DNA of 64,000 nt from assembly GCF_036507355.1 (NCBI RefSeq), contig NZ_AP027877.1; one strand, given 5' to 3'. Made by a program: the position numbers and the translations under genes. Source of the stretch: Escherichia coli. GTDB taxonomy: Bacteria > Pseudomonadota > Gammaproteobacteria > Enterobacterales > Enterobacteriaceae. Shown piece after piece: positions 37,002 through 64,000 of the stretch. The notes under the pieces were generated by a model that worked only from the letters and a program-made list of their open reading frames with translations, was not told the DNA's origin and searched no databases. Within the stretch, counting starts at the first letter, position 1. Each line of letters opens with the position of its first letter.

Positions 37002-37078
37002 TGGCGCGCCCTGCAGGATTCGAACCTGCGGCCCACGACTTAGAAGGTCGTTGCTCTATCCAACTGAGCTAAGGGCGC
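37002..37078 (-). tRNA. argU: tRNA-Arg (anticodon UCU), argU
   Basis: Reverse complement reads GCGCCCTTAGCTCAGTTGGATAGAGCAACGACCTTCTAAGTCGTGGGCCGCAGGTTCGAATCCTGCAGGGCGCGCCA: cloverleaf with TTCGAATCC T-arm, UCU anticodon and CCA end. Confidence 0.93.
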
Positions 37079-37320: not shown

Positions 37321-37529
37321 ATGAAACCAACGTCGGTGATCATTATGGATACTCATCCTATCATCAGAATGTCTATTGAAGTTCTGTTGCAAAAAAACAG
37401 TGAATTGCAGATTGTCCTGAAAACGGATGATTACCGCATAACCATCGATTATCTCCGAACCCGTCCTGTTGATTTAATCATTATGGATATAGACTTGCCC
37501 GGAACAGACGGTTTTACCTTCCTGAAAAG
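37321..37529 (+). pseudogene. fimZ: 5' fragment of response-regulator gene fimZ (receiver domain only), truncated by IS1
   Basis: Encodes MKPTSVIIMDTHPIIRMSIEVLLQKNSELQIVLKTDDYRITIDYLRTRPVDLIIMDIDLPGTDGFTFLKR, then runs into the IS1 terminal repeat (…VMTPTY*). Confidence 0.85.
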
Positions 37530-37544
37530 GGTAATGACTCCAAC

Positions 37545-38048
37545 TTATTGATAGTGTTTTATGTTCAGATAATGCCCGATGACTTTGTCATGCAGCTCCA
37601 CCGATTTTGAGAACGACAGCGACTTCCGTCCCAGCCGTGCCAGGTGCTGCCTCAGATTCAGGTTATGCCGCTCAATTCGCTGCGTATATCGCTTGCTGAT
37701 TACGTGCAGCTTTCCCTTCAGGCGGGATTCATACAGCGGCCAGCCATCCGTCATCCATATCACCACGTCAAAGGGTGACAGCAGGCTCATAAGACGCCCC
37801 AGCGTCGCCATCGTGCGTTCACCGAATACGTGCGCAACAACCGTCTTCCGGAGCCTGTCATACGCGTAAAACAGCCAGCGCTGGCGCGATTTAGCCCCGA
37901 CATAGCCCCACTGTTCGTCCATTTCCGCGCAGACGATGACGTCACTGCCCGGCTGTATGCGCGAGGTTACCGACTGCGGCCTGAGTTTTTTAAGTGACGT
38001 AAAATCGTGTTGAGGCCAACGCCCATAATGCGGGCTGTTGCCCGGCAT
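37545..38048 (-). CDS. insB: IS1 InsB (transposase frame; InsAB' is made by -1 frameshift)
   Basis: 167-aa [28 protein letters not shown]… overlapping the insA 3' end in the -1 frame. Confidence 0.95.
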
Positions 38049-38242
38049 CCAACGCCATTCATGGCCATATCAATGATTTTCTGGTGCGTACCGGGTTGAG
38101 AAGCGGTGTAAGTGAACTGCAGTTGCCATGTTTTACGGCAGTGAGAGCAGAGATAGCGCTGATGTCCGGCGGTGCTTTTGCCGTTACGCACCACCCCGTC
38201 AGTAGCTGAACAGGAGGGACAGCTGATAGAAACAGAAGCCAC
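37967..38242 (-). CDS. insA: IS1 InsA
   Basis: 91-aa protein [42 protein letters not shown]…. Confidence 0.95.
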
Positions 38243-38525
38243 TGGAGCACCTCAAAAACACCATCATACACTAAATCAGTAAGTTGGCAGCATCACCAAT
38301 TATCTTAATCCTTTGACAAGGAAATAAGTCAGTTCCAGATTTACAACGCCATCATGGACGAAAAATGAAGCTTTCAATCTCAGCGACCTCAGCGACGGTG
38401 CGCCTAACCTTCGCAAGAGGTCGCTTCACGCGATAAATCTGAAACGAAACCTGACAGCGCGCCCCGCTTCTGACAAAATAGGCGCATCCCCTTCGACCTA
38501 CGTAACAGATGGAATCCTCTCTCTG

Positions 38526-44739: not shown

Positions 44740-44749
44740 GCAGGTGCTC

Positions 44750-45000
44750 ATTTGATTGCCGGATGCGGCGTAAACGCCTTATCCAGCCTACCGATCCGGC
44801 ACCCATTGTAGGCCTGATAAGATGCGTCAAGCGTCGCATCAGGCATTGTGCGCCAATTGCCGGATGCGGCACCAATTGTAGGCCTGATAAGACGCGTCAA
44901 GCGTCGCATCAGGCATTGTGCGCCAATTGCCGGATGCGGCACCAATTGTAGGCCTGATAAGACGCGTCAAGCGTCGCATCAGGCACAAATGTCTAATGCC
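44750..45000. repeat. Cluster of REP palindromes (BIME) in three tandem units of about 70 bp
   Basis: gccggatgcggc…tgtaggcctgataagacgcgtcaagcgtcgcatcaggc repeated three times between convergent purK and ybcF. Confidence 0.85.
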
Positions 45001-45005
45001 TACAA

Positions 45006-45899
45006 CTACAGCGAAATACAGGTCCCCGCTTCGCCCGCCAGCGTCTCTTCAATCCGCGATAACGCCCCAATCCACGCGGGTTTACCACGGCTTCTGACAT
45101 AACCACTCACCGCCGTTACCTTCGGCCCCATCGAACCATCGGCTTTGGCAAATGGCGCTAACTCATCCGGTGTGGCATGGCGAATGGCACGTTGCTGCGG
45201 CGTTCCCCAGTTTTCATATACCGCATCAGCATCGGTGAGGATCACCAGTCCATCGGCGTTAATTTGCTCGGCGAGCAACGCAGCGGCGAGATCTTTATCA
45301 ATCACTGCTTCACTCCCTGCTCCGTCATCCGTCACAGGCACACCGCCGCCGCCACTGCAAATCACCACATGCCCCTCTTTGAGCAACAACTCGATGGCTT
45401 CGCTGTCGAGAATTTTACGCGGTTGCGGAGACGCCACCACCCGGCGTAAATATTTACCATCACGTTTCATCTGCCAGCCGTAAGCCGCTTCCAGTGCCTC
45501 TTGTTCTTCTGGCTGATAAACCGGACCAATAAATTTCTCTGGCTGCAAAAACGCCGGATCATCAGGCGAAACCTCAATGCGCGTCAGCACCGTCGTCACG
45601 GGCGGCATCTGCGGCTGTGCGCTCAAACTCTGCGCCAGCATATAGCCAATCATCCCCTGACTTTCTGCCACCAGCACATCCAGCGGATACGGTTCTACCT
45701 CTTTCCACGCCAGATTCTGCAATGCCAGCAGCCCCACCTGCGGCCCGTTGCCGTGAACAATCGCCAGCCGATAAGAACGGGCCAGGCGCGCCAGCGCGGG
45801 TACAGCACTGGCGATATTGCGATATTGATTTTCTGCCGTCAGCGCCTCACCGCGCTGAAGCAAGGCATTGCCCCCAAGAGCTACAACCAGTATTTTCAT
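45006..45899 (-). CDS. ybcF: Carbamate kinase-like protein YbcF (ArcC/AllK)
   Basis: 297-aa [21 protein letters not shown]… typical of the carbamate kinase family; start overlaps the ylbF stop. Confidence 0.92.
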
Positions 45900-46711
45900 G
45901 GTTTTCCTTGTAATAATTGTTGACCAAGCCAGAACCCCAGCAGTGTATCTGCCCCTGACGTATGCCCCAGCGCCAGCAGCGAATCAATCGCAACAGCGGT
46001 ACGTTTCGGGCAACTCAGAGCATGAACAAAGTGCAGGAGTGGCGAGGCGAAATATCCTTGCGCGGCATAACGTAAATAACTGACGCTCACCGCTGTGGTA
46101 ACGAGTTGCAGATTGTCGGAACAGGCAAAAAACGGACGACCGGAGCGCGCATCTAAAGCGCCATAATACCAGGCCGCCAGCAGCATTCCGCTCAGCGTGT
46201 CATCATGACTCGGCGTTAATCCGGGGCCTTTACCCAGCCAGTGTCGCCAGTCGGTCTTAACGCCATTGAGCGCGGCCTGAAAACAGTGACGAAACTGGCG
46301 TAACTCAGCAGGCAGCGGATCGCTTGCCGCCAACGCCAGTGGCCCGAAAAGCCCGGTTTCCTCCGCGCGTTGCATCCATGCAGCTGCAAGTGGTTGAGGA
46401 TGCGCAGGCGGCGTAATACGCAGCAAACAATAACGCTGTGGCTGTTTAACCGTGAAACGCCCGAGGCGAATCCCTTGAGCCACAACCTGTGGTCGTTCAT
46501 TGCCGCATAATCCACCGCATAACGCATCGAATTGCGCACGGCGAAGCACCCATCCTCCGGGGCCGAAACCACTACCCTGACGATGCAGCGTTAACAGTTC
46601 GCCGCTTTCCGTCATCAGGTTAATCGCCCGCCGCCACACTCCCGCTAACCGCCAGGACTGGCGATAATTCGGTGCGCTACTACTGGCAAGCAGAGGATGG
46701 ATGATCGTCAT
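45896..46711 (-). CDS. ylbF: YlbF (AllH), putative oxamate carbamoyltransferase subunit
   Basis: 271 aa from the ATG at 46711 ([12 protein letters not shown]…); the track ORF from 46804 is an upstream extension. Confidence 0.85.
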
Positions 46712-46721
46712 TGCGCGTTCC

Positions 46722-47981
46722 TCAACCAATACCCATGCTTTCAGCCAGTGCTTCCAGCGCCTGTTCAAAACACGCCAGCGGTGCCCGCACAGTGCCTGCG
46801 CCAATCTGCCCGATCCCCGCCTCTTTATGGGCGATACCGGTATTGATGAGTGGCGTAATGCCGGTTTCTACCACGCGACGAATGTCCAGTCCCAGGCACG
46901 CGCCCTGAAAATCCCAGCTTGGGATCTGCAACTGCATATTGCGTTCAAGGTAAATTTCCGCCATCTCTTCAGATACCGCCCTGGCCGCTTCCATGCCACC
47001 CGCACCGACAAAGCGCGTTACGCCAGGCGCTGCGATCATTGCCGCACCTCCGATACCAAAGGTTTCGGTAATCGCGCTATCGCCCATATCCGGGTTCGCC
47101 TGCTCCTGCGAGAAGCCGGTGAAAAACAGACCTTGCGGAGTGTTTACAGGCGCAGTAAACCAGCGTTCGCCCAGCCCGCTTACCCGAATCCCGAACATAT
47201 TGCCGTTGCGGGTCATTGCCGTGACGATGCTGCCTGCGCGGATCATCGCGCCAGCATCCATCGCCGCCTTGCAGTAAGCCATCGCGAGGTTGAGGAAGAA
47301 CTGATCGGTCACGCTGAGGAAATCCATCACTTCCGCGATGTGCTGTTTATCATGATCGAGGCGAGCAATTTGTGGGGCCAGCGCACGCATTAACAGTGCT
47401 GAGGAAGCAATATTGCGTTGATGGAACTCATCGCCCATCGTAATGCCCTGCGCCATCATCGCGGTAAGATCGATACCGCGCTCCATGCGCCCCAGCGCCG
47501 CGCTTAATACTGGCATTAACACATCGCGCATCCAGCGATGGCGAGTCAGGACATCTTCGCCGTAAGCGCCAAAACGCATCACTTTGCCGATACCTTCGTT
47601 GAGGTTGCAGTACGCCCGGTTGCCGTCGGTCACATTCTCGACCACCAGCATTGGCATACTGGCAGAAGTAATGCCGCCCATTGGCCCGACGGCATTCACA
47701 TGGTGACAAGGAATGAAGTTCACTTCCCCCTGCTCCAGTATTGCCAGCGCCTGCGCTTCATCTTTCGCCCAACCTTCCAACAGACATGCGCCCACGCACG
47801 CCCCTTTCATGGGTCCGGTCATCTCCTGCCAGCGCATTGGCGGCCCGGCGTGAAGCAGTGTTTTGCCCTGGTTTAGTTCGCTGATAAGTGAAGAAGCCGG
47901 TTGCACATCCAGCCAGTGTGGACGAGCGCGACGAATTTGTTCGATAACCGCAGCATTGGCTTGCGCCACTGATGTAAACAT
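46722..47981 (-). CDS. ylbE: YlbE (AllG, DUF1116), intact 419-aa form
   Basis: Uninterrupted 419-aa [26 protein letters not shown]…. Confidence 0.88.
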
Positions 47982-47990
47982 GGGAACCCC

Positions 47991-49658
47991 TTATTGCAAA
48001 CGTTCTAATAAACGAGCCAGTTTTTTATTGCCGCCGGCGACTGGCGACCATTGGTAATGCACAACCGGTTTGCTGGCGCTTTGTAGCTCCAGCGCAAAAC
48101 TGCGTAATCCGATGTTAATCACGGCGACGTTTTCCAGTAATGACGGTGTGTGTTGCTGTGCGGCAGGCGAGAGCGGATGAATTAACGCTGCCGCCAGCAA
48201 GGTGGCTTCCGGCAGCGAACTCACTACCGCGATCCCCGCATCTTCCAGCGTGGCGATTTGCTGCGAGCGGCATTGCGGGTCACGTTCAGTGCCTGTCACC
48301 GTGGCAATGGCATACAGTGGTTGATTGTCTGAACGCGCAGCACAGGCTTTTTGCCAGGCGCTTACCAGCGAGGCGGCAGGATCGGCAGTCGCACCGAAGC
48401 CAATCACGACATCAAGCAGCAGCACACGCACTTGCGGTTTAGCGCCGAGATCGGCAATTAACTGGTTGCGTAAGGTTGGGTCGATCATCGGATGGGGACG
48501 CCCGACGGTGTAGAAATCATCGCCGAGGTCAATAATCTGGTGGCCATCGGCGTCCAGCATCATGCCGTGATGATGGGCATCATCGGCTTCCACGCCAAGG
48601 TGTCCGGCAAGTAATCCCGCCGCTTCGGCAGCCAGCGTACCGCCGGTATACAAACCGCAAATAAATCCGCTGCTGGCAGGCGTTATCGCGTTACGTCGCG
48701 CCGTAACGCGTGAAAGCAGGCAAGCCAGGCGTGCGGCCTCATCCAGCGAGGAGGCAAACCAGACATTCTCGTCGCGGGCCACCGCCGGGGTATAACCTAA
48801 AAACAGCGCCACCGTCGGTTTGCCGGTTGCTTTCATGGCATTAACAATTTTCAGACGCACCGCTTCGGCAGGTGGTTTTGAAACAAATGCCAGCACTTCG
48901 CTTTTCTCGTCTGCACTGAGCATTTCCAGCGCTGTTAGCGCACTGATGCCGCCCACTTCACGGCTGAGGTCGCGCCCGCCAAGGCCAATCGCGTGAGTAA
49001 TTCCCTCCCCTGCCAGCGCAATCTGCGAACACAGCTCCTGAATCCCGGTACCGGAAGCGCCAATGACGCCAATATTGCCTTCCGGCATCACGTTAGCAAA
49101 AGCCAGCGGCGTGGCGGCAATCATCGACGTACCGCAGTCCGGCCCCATCACCAGCAAGCCTTTTTCTCGCGCGCGGGTTTTAAGTTGGATTTCATCTTCC
49201 AGCGTGACGTTATCGGAGAACATCATCACGTTGAGGTTGCGATCCAGCGCCTGATTCGCCAGCTCCGCCGCATACTCGCCAGCCACTGAAATCAGCGCCA
49301 GATTGGCATCGGGTAATTTCTGACAGGCACTGTCCCAGCGACGCACCTGCGTCAAGGACTGGCTGCTGCCTGACCCCTGCGCCAGTTGTTTTAGCGCCTC
49401 TTCAAGCTGCTGCATAATCGCCTGCGCGATCCCCGCATCCGCCGCTTCGCTACGAATTGCCACGCAAATATCGTTCGGCGTGGCGTTATTAAAATCGTCA
49501 TGCCAGAAACCTGTGGTATCTAATAACGCTTTATTGGCGGGCGTACCCATCATTACGGAAACATCATCAACATTTTCTGATTCGCTGAGTTTTCGTGAAA
49601 TAATCATTAAACTGACCGAATCCTGAAAACACCCTTTTTTAATAAAGGCGTGGATCAT
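47991..49658 (-). CDS. fdrA: FdrA (AllF), acyl-CoA synthetase-like protein
   Basis: 555-aa ORF MIHAFIKKGCFQDSVSLMIISRKL…; first gene of the fdrA-ylbE-ylbF-ybcF block. Confidence 0.92.
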   Translation of the reverse strand: MIHAFIKKGCFQDSVSLMIISRKLSESENVDDVSVMMGTPANKALLDTTGFWHDDFNNATPNDICVAIRSEAADAGIAQAIMQQLEEALKQLAQGSGSSQSLTQVRRWDSACQKLPDANLALISVAGEYAAELANQALDRNLNVMMFSDNVTLEDEIQLKTRAREKGLLVMGPDCGTSMIAATPLAFANVMPEGNIGVIGASGTGIQELCSQIALAGEGITHAIGLGGRDLSREVGGISALTALEMLSADEKSEVLAFVSKPPAEAVRLKIVNAMKATGKPTVALFLGYTPAVARDENVWFASSLDEAARLACLLSRVTARRNAITPASSGFICGLYTGGTLAAEAAGLLAGHLGVEADDAHHHGMMLDADGHQIIDLGDDFYTVGRPHPMIDPTLRNQLIADLGAKPQVRVLLLDVVIGFGATADPAASLVSAWQKACAARSDNQPLYAIATVTGTERDPQCRSQQIATLEDAGIAVVSSLPEATLLAAALIHPLSPAAQQHTPSLLENVAVINIGLRSFALELQSASKPVVHYQWSPVAGGNKKLARLLERLQ

Positions 49659-49974
49659 AACAACTCCTTAAAAATTGCACCCATGGCAATTGCACGAGCA
49701 GTGTTAATGTGGCGATTACGGTATCGATGACAACGGGTAAATAAGGTGATGAATATCACACAGGGATTATTAACAAAAGAATTCAAATAACCGCCATGCT
49801 ATTACGTGTTATTTTTTAATAAGCGTGGTTGTTTTAAAAACCAGGTTAAAAGAGAGCGGATTATCAAATAAATTCTAACTATATTTTTTTGCCTGTCTGG
49901 ATCACATAATCCAGATATTTTCCCTGTATGTTAATTGCAGTCATGCTTCACACCGTCGTTAAAAAGGAAGACAG

Positions 49975-51024
49975 ATGAAAATCAGTCGGGAAACACTCCA
50001 CCAGCTAATTGAGAATAAACTCTGCCAGGCTGGGTTAAAACGTGAGCACGCTGCAACCGTGGCTGAAGTATTGGTTTACGCCGATGCCAGAGGGATCCAC
50101 TCTCATGGCGCGGTGCGCGTGGAATACTACGCGGAACGCATTTCAAAAGGCGGCACCAACCGCGAACCGGAGTTTCGTCTTGAGGAAACCGGGCCGTGCT
50201 CGGCAATTTTACATGCCGACAATGCCGCCGGACAGGTCGCGGCGAAAATGGGTATGGAACATGCCATCAAAACCGCCCAGCAAAATGGCGTTGCGGTGGT
50301 CGGTATCAGCCGGATGGGTCACAGCGGCGCAATCTCTTATTTTGTGCAGCAGGCAGCCCGCGCCGGATTAATTGGCATTTCGATGTGCCAGTCCGATCCA
50401 ATGGTGGTGCCGTTTGGCGGCGCGGAAATTTACTACGGTACTAACCCACTGGCCTTTGCCGCGCCGGGAGAAGGCAACGAGATCCTTACCTTTGATATGG
50501 CGACTACCGTACAGGCATGGGGAAAAGTGCTCGACGCCCGCTCGCGTAATATGTCTATCCCGGATACCTGGGCGGTCGATAAAAACGGTGCACCAACAAC
50601 CGATCCGTTCGCGGTACATGCTCTGCTCCCCGCCGCCGGGCCGAAAGGGTATGGCCTGATGATGATGATTGACGTCCTCTCAGGCGTCTTACTCGGCTTA
50701 CCGTTCGGGCGACAGGTTAGTTCGATGTATGACGATTTACACGCCGGGCGTAATTTGGGGCAATTACATTTAGTTATTAATCCGAACTTTTTCTCCTCCA
50801 GCGAATTATTCCGTCAACATCTTAGCCAGACCATGCGCGAATTAAATGCCATTACCCCCGCGCCCGGTTTTAATCAGGTTTATTATCCCGGACAGGATCA
50901 GGATATTAAACAACGCAAAGCCGCCGTCGAAGGCATCGAAATTGTTGATGATATTTACCAGTATTTAATTTCCGACGCGCTTTATAACACGTCATACGAA
51001 ACGAAAAATCCCTTTGCGCAATAA
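49975..51024 (+). CDS. allD: Ureidoglycolate dehydrogenase AllD
   Basis: 349-aa ORF MKISRETLHQLIENKLCQAGL…. Confidence 0.95.
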   Translation: MKISRETLHQLIENKLCQAGLKREHAATVAEVLVYADARGIHSHGAVRVEYYAERISKGGTNREPEFRLEETGPCSAILHADNAAGQVAAKMGMEHAIKTAQQNGVAVVGISRMGHSGAISYFVQQAARAGLIGISMCQSDPMVVPFGGAEIYYGTNPLAFAAPGEGNEILTFDMATTVQAWGKVLDARSRNMSIPDTWAVDKNGAPTTDPFAVHALLPAAGPKGYGLMMMIDVLSGVLLGLPFGRQVSSMYDDLHAGRNLGQLHLVINPNFFSSSELFRQHLSQTMRELNAITPAPGFNQVYYPGQDQDIKQRKAAVEGIEIVDDIYQYLISDALYNTSYETKNPFAQ

Positions 51025-51045: not shown

Positions 51046-52281
51046 ATGATTACACATTTTCGCCAAGCCATAGAAGAAACGCTGCCCTGGCTTTCCTCTT
51101 TTGGCGCTGACCCAGCGGGTGGGATGACCCGTTTACTTTATTCGCCGGAATGGCTGGAAACCCAGCAGCAATTTAAAAAAAGAATGGCAGCAAGCGGGCT
51201 GGAAACACGTTTCGATGAAGTGGGGAATTTATACGGTCGCCTGAGTGGCACCGAATATCCACAGGAAGTGGTTCTGAGCGGTTCGCATATCGATACCGTG
51301 GTTAACGGCGGTAACCTCGACGGGCAATTCGGCGCGCTGGCGGCGTGGCTGGCAATTGACTGGTTGAAAACGCAATACGGCGCGCCGTTACGTACGGTTG
51401 AAGTGGTGGCGATGGCGGAAGAAGAAGGCAGCCGCTTCCCGTATGTTTTCTGGGGCAGTAAAAATATCTTTGGGCTGGCGAATCCTGACGACGTGCGGAA
51501 TATCTGTGATGCCAAAGGAAATAGTTTTGTCGATGCGATGAAGGCTTGCGGATTTACTCTGCCGAACGCCCCACTAACTCCGCGTCAGGATATTAAAGCC
51601 TTTGTCGAACTGCATATCGAACAGGGCTGTGTGCTGGAAAGTAATGGGCAATCAATTGGCGTGGTGAATGCAATTGTCGGGCAGCGTCGCTATACGGTGA
51701 CGCTGAACGGCGAATCAAACCATGCAGGCACCACGCCGATGGGTTATCGTCGTGATACGGTTTACGCTTTCAGTCGCATTTGCCATCAGTCGATCGAAAA
51801 AGCGAAAAAGATGGGCGATCCGCTGGTTCTGACCTTTGGGAAAGTAGAGCCGCGCCTGAATACGGTGAATGTGGTGCCGGGTAAAACCACGTTCACCATT
51901 GATTGTCGTCATACCGACGCCGCCGTGCTGCGTGATTTCACCCAACAGTTAGAAAACGACATGCGGGCGATTTGCGATGAAATGGACATTGGTATTGATA
52001 TCGATTTATGGATGGACGAAGAACCCGTGCCGATGAATAAGGACCTGGTCGCCACCCTGACAGAATTGTGTGAAAGCGAAAAACTGAATTACCGGGTGAT
52101 GCACAGTGGTGCCGGGCACGACGCGCAAATTTTCGCGCCTCGCGTGCCGACCTGCATGATTTTCATTCCCAGCATCAACGGGATCAGCCATAACCCGGCG
52201 GAACGCACCAATATTACCGACCTTGCCGAAGGGGTCAAAACGTTGGCACTCATGCTTTATCAACTTGCCTGGCAGAAATAA
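51046..52281 (+). CDS. allC: Allantoate amidohydrolase AllC
   Basis: 411 aa from the ATG at 51046 (MITHFRQAIEETLP…), M20 peptidase family. Confidence 0.95.
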   Translation: MITHFRQAIEETLPWLSSFGADPAGGMTRLLYSPEWLETQQQFKKRMAASGLETRFDEVGNLYGRLSGTEYPQEVVLSGSHIDTVVNGGNLDGQFGALAAWLAIDWLKTQYGAPLRTVEVVAMAEEEGSRFPYVFWGSKNIFGLANPDDVRNICDAKGNSFVDAMKACGFTLPNAPLTPRQDIKAFVELHIEQGCVLESNGQSIGVVNAIVGQRRYTVTLNGESNHAGTTPMGYRRDTVYAFSRICHQSIEKAKKMGDPLVLTFGKVEPRLNTVNVVPGKTTFTIDCRHTDAAVLRDFTQQLENDMRAICDEMDIGIDIDLWMDEEPVPMNKDLVATLTELCESEKLNYRVMHSGAGHDAQIFAPRVPTCMIFIPSINGISHNPAERTNITDLAEGVKTLALMLYQLAWQK

Positions 52282-52291
52282 GGAGTCATAA

Positions 52292-53077
52292 ATGGGATAT
52301 TTAAATAACGTCACCGGTTACCGCGATGATTTACTGGCTAACCGTGCGATTGTGAAACACGGTAATTTCGCACTGTTAACACCAGACGGTCTGGTAAAAA
52401 ATATTATTCCGGGCTTTGAAAATTGTGACGCGACAATCCTCTCCACGCCAAAGCTGGGTGCCTCTTTTGTTGATTATCTGGTCACACTGCATCAAAACGG
52501 TGGCAACCAACAGGGCTTCGGTGGCGAAGGCATTGAAACGTTCCTGTATGTGATCTCTGGAAATATCACTGCCAAAGCCGAAGGCAAAACATTTGCCTTA
52601 AGCGAAGGTGGCTATCTTTATTGCCCGCCAGGCTCCTTAATGACGTTTGTTAACGCCAAGGCCGAAGACAGCCAAATCTTTTTATATAAGCGCCGCTATG
52701 TTCCGGTAGAAGGCCATGCACCGTGGCTGGTTTCTGGCAATGCCAGCGAACTGGAACGCATTCACTATGAAGGTATGGATGATGTGATCCTGCTGGATTT
52801 TCTGCCCAAAGAGTTAGGTTTTGATATGAACATGCATATCCTCTCTTTTGCACCAGGTGCCAGCCATGGTTATATCGAAACACACGTTCAGGAACACGGT
52901 GCCTATATTCTTTCCGGTCAGGGGGTTTATAACCTCGACAATAACTGGATCCCGGTGAAAAAAGGCGATTACATCTTTATGGGCGCTTATTCTTTACAGG
53001 CTGGTTATGGCGTAGGGCGTGGTGAAGCGTTCAGCTATATTTACTCGAAAGATTGTAACCGCGACGTAGAGATTTAA
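52292..53077 (+). CDS. allE: (S)-ureidoglycine aminohydrolase AllE (YlbA), bicupin
   Basis: 261-aa ORF MGYLNNVTGYRDDLLANRAIVKHGNF…. Confidence 0.93.
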   Translation: MGYLNNVTGYRDDLLANRAIVKHGNFALLTPDGLVKNIIPGFENCDATILSTPKLGASFVDYLVTLHQNGGNQQGFGGEGIETFLYVISGNITAKAEGKTFALSEGGYLYCPPGSLMTFVNAKAEDSQIFLYKRRYVPVEGHAPWLVSGNASELERIHYEGMDDVILLDFLPKELGFDMNMHILSFAPGASHGYIETHVQEHGAYILSGQGVYNLDNNWIPVKKGDYIFMGAYSLQAGYGVGRGEAFSYIYSKDCNRDVEI

Positions 53078-63911: not shown

Positions 63912-64000
63912 AACTAGATTTAGTCCACAAATTGAACAGGGTTATCATGTAAAAATACTGATAAATCAGAGGATAAGAAAATCACGCAACTTGCGGATTT

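Follow-up and report, generated by a model that had tools for sequence, protein, structure and literature searches.

The four minus-strand genes at 45006-49658 of the window, the whole 64,000-nt stretch of Escherichia coli DNA that we analysed, almost certainly (probability about 0.95) represent the E. coli core-genome operon allFGHK, which encodes the oxamate branch of anaerobic allantoin catabolism, and an intact ylbE is its normal state, MG1655 included. This operon is already known, together with its enzymes and regulators, and the window carries one more ordinary allele of it.

The open reading frame list places four minus-strand frames in this interval, at 47991-49658 (555 aa, ATG), 46722-47981 (419 aa, ATG), 45896-46804 (the longest form, opening with TTG) and 45006-45899 (297 aa, ATG). 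The first is fdrA (allF; 47991..49658), coding for the largest subunit of oxamic transcarbamylase, and it is followed by two further subunit genes, the uninterrupted ylbE (allG; 46722..47981) and ylbF (allH; 45896..46711, 271 aa), and by ybcF (allK; 45006..45899), the gene for a catabolic carbamate kinase. The longest ylbF frame, from the TTG at 46804, would encode 302 aa and run into ylbE; the accepted start is the ATG at 46711, which has GAGGAA upstream and fits the 816-bp gene expressed in PMC11326118. The fdrA ATG is preceded, 6 nt upstream, by the Shine-Dalgarno sequence AAGGAG. fdrA and ylbE are separated by 9 nt and ylbE and ylbF by 10 nt, while ylbF and ybcF overlap by 4 nt (45896-45899), the ybcF ATG sharing the sequence ATGA with the ylbF TGA; all three spacings are identical in MG1655. 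An earlier note on this DNA, made from the sequence alone, had described four intact minus-strand genes with this overlap, a clean 419-aa ylbE frame and a position divergent to allDCE, and the frame list and the comparison with MG1655 bear it out on each count. Its 10-nt gaps elsewhere hold for ylbE-ylbF and are a trivial slip for fdrA-ylbE.

Comparison with MG1655 revealed the same lengths and the same start and stop codons in all four genes, no internal stops, and nucleotide identities of 98.2-99.5%. The dN/dS ratios against MG1655 are 0.12 for fdrA, 0.046 for ylbE, 0 for ylbF and 0.045 for ybcF and, as far as such ratios indicate, the four genes are under purifying selection. A chance pattern of open frames is excluded by this identity, by the low dN/dS (0-0.12) and by strong Pfam and NCBIfam matches. 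Two antisense frames within the block (46701-47393 and 45501-45923) gave no Pfam match. The 5.7-kb block, at a coverage of at least 80%, is present in 5405 of 5426 complete E. coli genomes and belongs to the core genome of the species; this search placed matches at a median of 15 sites per genome, owing to a REP/BIME cluster that lies within the searched block.

At the 3′ end of the operon, this cluster (44740..45005) occupies the spacer between the convergent ybcF and purK and contains three tandem 70-nt units at 44793-45002. MG1655 has one unit fewer, with a spacer of 194 nt against 266 nt in the window. An Rfam search of the purK-ybcF spacer yielded only sub-threshold matches to naRNA4, a REP-derived family.

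Relative to the K-12 allFGHK operon (b0518, b4572, b0520, b0521), the window thus preserves gene order, lengths, spacings, start and stop codons and the 316-nt spacer to allD. The differences are only allelic: 8, 2, 0 and 2 residues in the four proteins, and 74 substitutions over 4969 nt, 10 of them in the promoter spacer, besides the extra REP/BIME unit 3′ of ybcF. The work on the K-12 operon is attributed to Kim & Kim (2022, 2024, 2025).

Domain analysis supports the assignment of each product. YlbE matches Pfam PF06545 AllG (E=8e-98) and has a close homologue of solved structure (PDB 3clq, E=5.5e-111); the exact window protein is present on 261 public contigs. YlbF matches Pfam PF11392 AllH and is identical to MG1655 b0520, the four nucleotide differences in its gene all being synonymous, and this protein is present on at least 1000 contigs. 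YbcF, with two amino acid differences from b0521, scores 618.6 bits against the NCBIfam carbamate kinase equivalog PRK09411 (cutoff 416) and 425 against TIGR00746 arcC (cutoff 358). FdrA, equal in length to b0518 with 98.26% nucleotide identity and eight amino acid differences, reaches 1045 bits against NCBIfam PRK06091 FdrA (cutoff 433). Proteins identical to it carry the HMA_AllF_N domain, and its structure has been solved (PDB 3dmy, 'Protein fdrA').

The flanking genes complete the K-12 arrangement. Across the 316-nt spacer from fdrA, the plus strand carries allD (49975-51024, annotated as ureidoglycolate dehydrogenase), allC (51046-52281, allantoate amidohydrolase) and allE (52292-53077, ureidoglycine aminohydrolase), each full length, intact and 97.6-99.3% identical to MG1655. 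Together with glxK, ybbY, allB, allW, glxR, hyi, gcl, allR and allA, these genes are collinear with MG1655, full length and free of internal stops; for glxK, 1144 of 1146 nt align to MG1655, within an open 383-aa frame. Position 64000 of the window corresponds to MG1655 532,240, and allS (531,295-532,221), the gene of the activator AllS, lies just beyond the window end.

In MG1655 itself the oxamate branch has been demonstrated both biochemically and genetically (PMC9843812, PMC11326118, PMC12535856). RT-PCR detected a transcript spanning all four genes, and YbcF is active as a carbamate kinase (PMC9843812). Purified AllFGH converts oxamate and carbamoyl phosphate to oxalurate with only Mg2+ added, the reverse direction being the only one assayed, as oxalurate is not sold commercially; MG1655 forms 17.7 mM oxamate from 19.5 mM allantoin, and deletion of allF, allG or allH abolishes oxamate formation (PMC11326118). 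Co-transcription, enzyme activities, deletion phenotypes and regulator binding have been reported for MG1655 and MC4100. The window contains full-length, near-identical orthologues in the K-12 arrangement, with the promoter spacer and the upstream all (allantoin) genes intact, and its strain probably uses the same pathway; no feature of the sequence speaks against this reading.

In this pathway, the allDCE operon supplies oxalurate through the oxidation of ureidoglycolate by AllD. The AllF-AllG-AllH oxamic transcarbamylase then converts oxalurate and Pi to oxamate and carbamoyl phosphate. AllK uses the latter to phosphorylate ADP, so that ATP is formed and carbamate is released, which breaks down to NH3 and CO2. 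A single mRNA for all four genes starts from a promoter in the allD-allF spacer, which AllS and ArcA activate when allantoin serves as nitrogen source and oxygen is absent. The earlier note, which had drawn a proposed route from oxamate through carbamoyl phosphate to ATP, was right on gene identities, operon layout and the link to the pathway; oxamate is the product and oxalurate the substrate, and "proposed" is outdated, the branch now being experimentally proven.

As an enzyme, AllFGH resembles the classical transcarbamylases (ATCase PyrB, OTCase ArgI/ArgF, YgeW) in catalysing a reversible carbamoyl transfer between carbamoyl phosphate and an acceptor nitrogen, and its coupling to AllK parallels that of catabolic OTCase to the carbamate kinase ArcC, which likewise yields ATP. 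In sequence it bears no relationship to them, and it is built from three different subunits instead of a homotrimer. None of the four window proteins matched the OTCase/ATCase Pfam domains (carbamoyl-phosphate-binding and Asp/Orn-binding) at E ≤ 0.001, and the authors of PMC11326118 likewise report that AllFGH has no similarity to classical transcarbamylases.

What FdrA does resemble is the succinyl-CoA synthetase (SCS) alpha and NDP-forming acyl-CoA synthetase superfamily. It carries the CoA_binding (PF02629, E=7.5e-13) and Ligase_CoA (PF00549, E=3.4e-37) domains, and its residues 118-290 align with residues 66-238 of SucD at 22% identity. These domains favour an older annotation, under which the cluster encodes no transcarbamylase: FdrA would act as an acyl-CoA synthetase or an oxamate:CoA ligase (or suppress ftsH mutations), and YlbE and YlbF would be unrelated proteins with no known function; the RefSeq name is still "acyl-CoA synthetase FdrA". 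Several observations argue against it. Purified AllF-AllG-AllH makes oxalurate in a mixture containing neither CoA nor nucleotide (PMC11326118), and FdrA by itself is reported to be inactive. FdrA scores 53.8 bits against the curated SCS alpha model, far under the required 336, and the alignment ends at SucD residue 238, before His246. The GH[AS]G phosphohistidine motif is absent from its sequence, with no recognisable GHAGA loop, and YlbE gave no BLASTP match to SucC. We therefore consider the older annotation extremely improbable. The phosphorolytic cleavage that turns an activated acyl group into an acyl phosphate may resemble the first half-reaction of SCS.

The earlier note described ylbE as frameshifted in MG1655 and suggested that the strain of the window may have kept a branch missing from the reference; the superseded MG1655 record indeed annotates ylbE as a pseudogene, and the W3110 RefSeq record still flags it as frameshifted. 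In the current record (NC_000913.3), ylbE (b4572) is annotated as an intact 1260-nt CDS. It has no fragments there to which the window gene could be aligned: the two genes are equal in length and 98.81% identical in nucleotide sequence, and their products differ only by E38Q and F68L. Moreover, the pathway was characterised in MG1655, where deletion of allG abolishes the formation of oxamate from allantoin (PMC11326118). A functional branch in the window strain that MG1655 has lost is refuted by this intact gene and by these experiments, and we see next to no chance that it is correct.

The discrepancy traces to a G5 tract at 47726..47730 on the minus strand (ylbE nt 252-256), the frameshift site of the old K-12 records. 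Both the window and the current MG1655 record read GCAGGGGGAAG here, and in silico removal of one G introduces a stop at codon 87 of the otherwise open 419-codon frame. The pseudogene records (U00096.2-era MG1655 and W3110 NC_007779.1) concern the same gene at the same locus and differ in reading GGGG where the window and NC_000913.3 read GGGGG. Of the 5417 complete E. coli records that match, four carry the 4-G version, NC_007779.1 (W3110) and CP026026-28; the others have no exact match to the 4-G probe, and the 6-G version has an exact match in no record. These counts were taken from ranked rows at 100% of the 99- and 100-nt probes; the ≥99% identity band is uninformative because 99/100 matches with a single gap fall into it as well. 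The records of W3110 and of strain CIT flag ylbE as "frameshifted".

Resequenced stocks differ from the superseded MG1655 record by an additional G at old coordinate 547,831 and by an A to G change at 547,694 (PMC4404585, PMC5460176, PMC4759930, PMC3045373). The 5-G allele has been reported in the MG1655 stocks ATCC47076, ENZ535 and BW30270, in NCM3722 and in a laboratory W3110.

Homopolymer tracts are known slippage sites, and the four deposited 4-G records could be taken to mean that the tract is a genuine hot spot, with certain K-12 sublines, the sequenced W3110 clone for instance, truly negative for oxamic transcarbamylase through an on/off polymorphism and not through sequencing error. 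We judge this very unlikely. The tract is just five G long and has no 6-G counterpart, and the extra G is present in a resequenced laboratory W3110. Three of the four 4-G records are 4.54-4.64 Mb in size and hold ylbE at the coordinates of the old MG1655 record, a pattern suggestive of K-12 derivatives assembled with a reference as guide. In addition, the silent change at 547,694 always accompanies the extra G, and two changes that always occur together indicate a single faulty stretch of the old records, not repeated slippage. The ylbE frameshift belongs to these old K-12 records.

Allelic differences of potential regulatory interest are concentrated in the divergent allD-allF spacer (49659..49974, 316 nt). 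It is equal in length to that of MG1655 and free of indels; its 10 substitutions all lie within -195 to -78 relative to the allF ATG. Activation of the operon requires both AllS and ArcA, and both bind promoter fragments; the EMSA fragments at -203/-144 (AllS) and -142/-83 (ArcA) correspond to window 49802-49861 and 49741-49800, respectively (PMC12535856). About 9-10 of the 10 substitutions fall inside these fragments. At the predicted AllS motif position, whose centre is placed at -181 in the literature, lies a dyad, TTTTAA-N8-TTAAAA (49832..49851, minus strand, -193..-174; TTTTAACCTGGTTTTTAAAA), and we propose it as a candidate AllS site from its sequence and placement. Neither arm differs from MG1655; the single substitution sits in the dyad spacer. 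Promoter and terminator scans of the block returned sites no more numerous than in shuffled sequence.

The substitutions in the AllS and ArcA fragments may make regulation of the window operon quantitatively different. Five of the eight FdrA substitutions relative to K-12 fall between residues 326 and 372, and a single FdrA change, D296Y, is reported to alter how ureidoglycolate is divided between the oxamate and glyoxylate branches. That the spacer substitutions or the eight FdrA changes alter this division relative to K-12, or that the ylbE G5 tract serves as an on/off switch in some K-12 sublines, seems highly improbable.

Collectively, the analysis has little discovery value, and its practical use lies in correcting the picture of ylbE (allG), which is no pseudogene in MG1655. 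This bears on strain engineering, where ylbE of W3110 has been used as an integration site (PMC12175537). Integration at this position in resequenced W3110 stocks probably disrupts one subunit of a functional enzyme and would also be polar on ylbF and ybcF.

ORF scanning recovered four minus-strand genes at the positions described in the earlier note, divergent to allDCE: ybcF (allK; 45006-45899, 297 aa), ylbF (allH; 271 aa from its accepted ATG at 46711), ylbE (allG; 46722-47981, 419 aa) and fdrA (allF; 47991-49658, 555 aa). A 316-nt spacer separates fdrA from allD, allC and allE on the plus strand, and a purine-rich, Shine-Dalgarno-like stretch lies 5′ of each of the four genes. The tight linkage reported earlier was borne out for the 4-nt ylbF/ybcF overlap (ATGA) and the 10-nt ylbE-ylbF gap, the fdrA-ylbE gap being 9 nt rather than 10, a trivial slip. 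The longest ylbF ORF in the scan starts at a TTG at 46804, and the UTI89 annotation has a 302-aa YlbF from the upstream TTG. Protein clusters at 90% identity mixed the 555-aa FdrA with the 419-aa YlbE, and YlbF with one YlbE, probably through chaining via fused or read-through gene calls.

Comparison with the current MG1655 record (NC_000913.3) revealed four intact coding sequences, fdrA (b0518), ylbE (b4572), ylbF (b0520) and ybcF (b0521), spaced as in the window. Each window gene agrees with its MG1655 counterpart in length and in start and stop codon, and none is interrupted by an internal stop. Nucleotide identities were 98.26% for fdrA (8 amino acid differences, dN/dS 0.12), 98.81% for ylbE (E38Q and F68L, 0.046), 99.51% for ylbF (no amino acid differences, 0) and 98.21% for ybcF (2 differences, 0.045), and these low ratios indicate purifying selection. 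Among the 5426 complete E. coli genomes searched, 5405 cover at least 80% of the 5.7-kb region, and one public draft assembly carries a block 100% identical to that of the window; the four-gene block is core genome, an already known and ordinary feature of E. coli. The allantoin genes allA to allD in the window are all full length and collinear with MG1655, with allS just past its end.

The uninterrupted ylbE noted earlier is confirmed, its 419-aa frame containing no internal stops and five G at nucleotides 252-256 (47726-47730). The accompanying contrast with a frameshifted ylbE in MG1655 is obsolete: in NC_000913.3 the gene is intact (1260 nt, YP_009029994.1), has the same five-G run and encodes a protein two residues from that of the window. 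Removal of one G from this run, the frameshift site, brings a stop at codon 87. Resequencing of K-12 lines against the old reference repeatedly found the same two ylbE differences, a synonymous A-to-G substitution at position 547,694 of that reference and a G inserted at 547,831 (base 253 of the gene). The pair restores an open reading frame to what had been annotated as a pseudogene, and was seen in BW30270 and its derivatives (PMC4404585), an MG1655 line (PMC5460176), ENZ535 and ATCC47076 (PMC4759930) and NCM3722 (PMC3045373). A resequenced laboratory W3110 carries the same two changes relative to the W3110 reference (PMC5979011).

When a 100-nt ylbE segment with four, five or six G was searched against all complete E. 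coli genomes, exact matches to the four-G version were confined to four records, those of W3110 (NC_007779.1) and of strains CIT, LIM and CAR (CP026026-28), and no record matched the six-G version. The last three are K-12-sized, with ylbE at old MG1655 coordinates, and ylbE is flagged as frameshifted in the W3110 and CIT records. This rarity, together with the resequenced stocks, indicates that the frameshift is a feature of old records, not of strains in use. The probe also matched two places on E. coli records classed as plasmids.

FdrA and YbcF score above NCBIfam curated cutoffs, and YlbE and YlbF match the named Pfam families AllG and AllH. As a pairing of a catabolic transcarbamylase with a carbamate kinase, allFGHK is comparable to ArcB/ArcC; however, Pfam found no ATCase/OTCase domains in the operon's proteins, which places AllFGH outside that family. 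With succinyl-CoA synthetase alpha, FdrA shares CoA-binding and CoA-ligase domains, but it has no recognisable phosphohistidine motif and scores far under that family's cutoffs. Since purified AllFGH also requires neither CoA nor nucleotide (PMC11326118), the RefSeq designation "acyl-CoA synthetase FdrA" is best read as describing the fold of the protein. A structure search of FdrA, YlbE and YlbF returned crystal structures for FdrA (3dmy) and a YlbE homologue (3clq), and none for YlbF.

The function of the block has since been established by experiment in MG1655. RT-PCR detected a single mRNA spanning the four genes, and YbcF, once purified, acted as a carbamate kinase with a KM of 0.47 mM for carbamoyl phosphate (PMC9843812). 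Deletion of allF, allG or allH abolished oxamate formation, and purified 6xHis-AllF/AllG/AllH-6xHis, with only Mg2+ and buffer added, converted oxamate and carbamoyl phosphate (KM 36.9 and 1.3 mM, respectively) to oxalurate (PMC11326118). In this pathway, AllD oxidises ureidoglycolate to oxalurate, AllFGH converts oxalurate and Pi to oxamate and carbamoyl phosphate, and AllK uses carbamoyl phosphate and ADP to yield ATP and carbamate. The branch suggested earlier, from oxamate through carbamoyl phosphate to ATP, therefore holds for its oxamate branch and carbamate kinase, but has oxamate on the wrong side of the reaction: oxamate is formed and then excreted. Klebsiella pneumoniae was described as lacking the OXTCase and carbamate kinase genes (PMC11326118), whereas the allantoin island of hypervirulent ST23 K. 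pneumoniae is reported to contain fdrA, ylbE, ylbF and arcC beside allABCDRS (PMC7718023).

Expression of allFGHK requires anaerobic conditions, allantoin and both regulators, AllS and ArcA, which bind promoter fragments -203/-144 and -142/-83, respectively, relative to the allF ATG (PMC12535856). The allD-allF spacer (49659-49974) is 316 nt in MG1655 as well, with no indels. Its 10 substitutions all lie within -195 to -78 (49736-49853), in or right beside the AllS and ArcA EMSA fragments, while the 120 nt adjoining allD and the 77 nt adjoining allF are identical. At the predicted AllS position, both arms of a putative TTTTAA-N8-TTAAAA dyad are the same as in MG1655. We read these substitutions as normal allelic variation, which may have a quantitative effect on regulation.

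Neighbouring sequence also differs from MG1655. The purK-ybcF spacer (44740-45005) measures 266 nt versus 194 nt and holds three tandem 70-nt REP/BIME units (44793-45002) versus two; these units gave sub-threshold Rfam naRNA4 matches and explain the large number of additional hits per genome in the initial BLAST search. An IS1 copy (37531-38298), with Pfam confirming both its InsA and its InsB ORF, stands where MG1655 carries the fimbrial sfm operon and the distal (3′) two-thirds of fimZ; of fimZ, only nucleotides 1-210 remain (37321-37530). The absent ~6.3 kb (MG1655 557,960-564,271) looks like an IS1-associated deletion. The minus-strand argU tRNA-Arg(UCU) gene (37002-37078) directly adjoins the envY side; the K-12 cryptic prophage DLP12 (MG1655 564,755-586,056; emrE, appY, ompT) is missing and its attachment site empty.

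One practical point follows from the label that persists in the W3110 record, where ylbE is still entered as a frameshifted pseudogene (NC_007779.1, 547581-548839) while the locus serves engineering. Several W3110 metabolic-engineering papers use ylbE as a cassette integration site, and a cassette placed there probably inactivates a working subunit of OXTCase.
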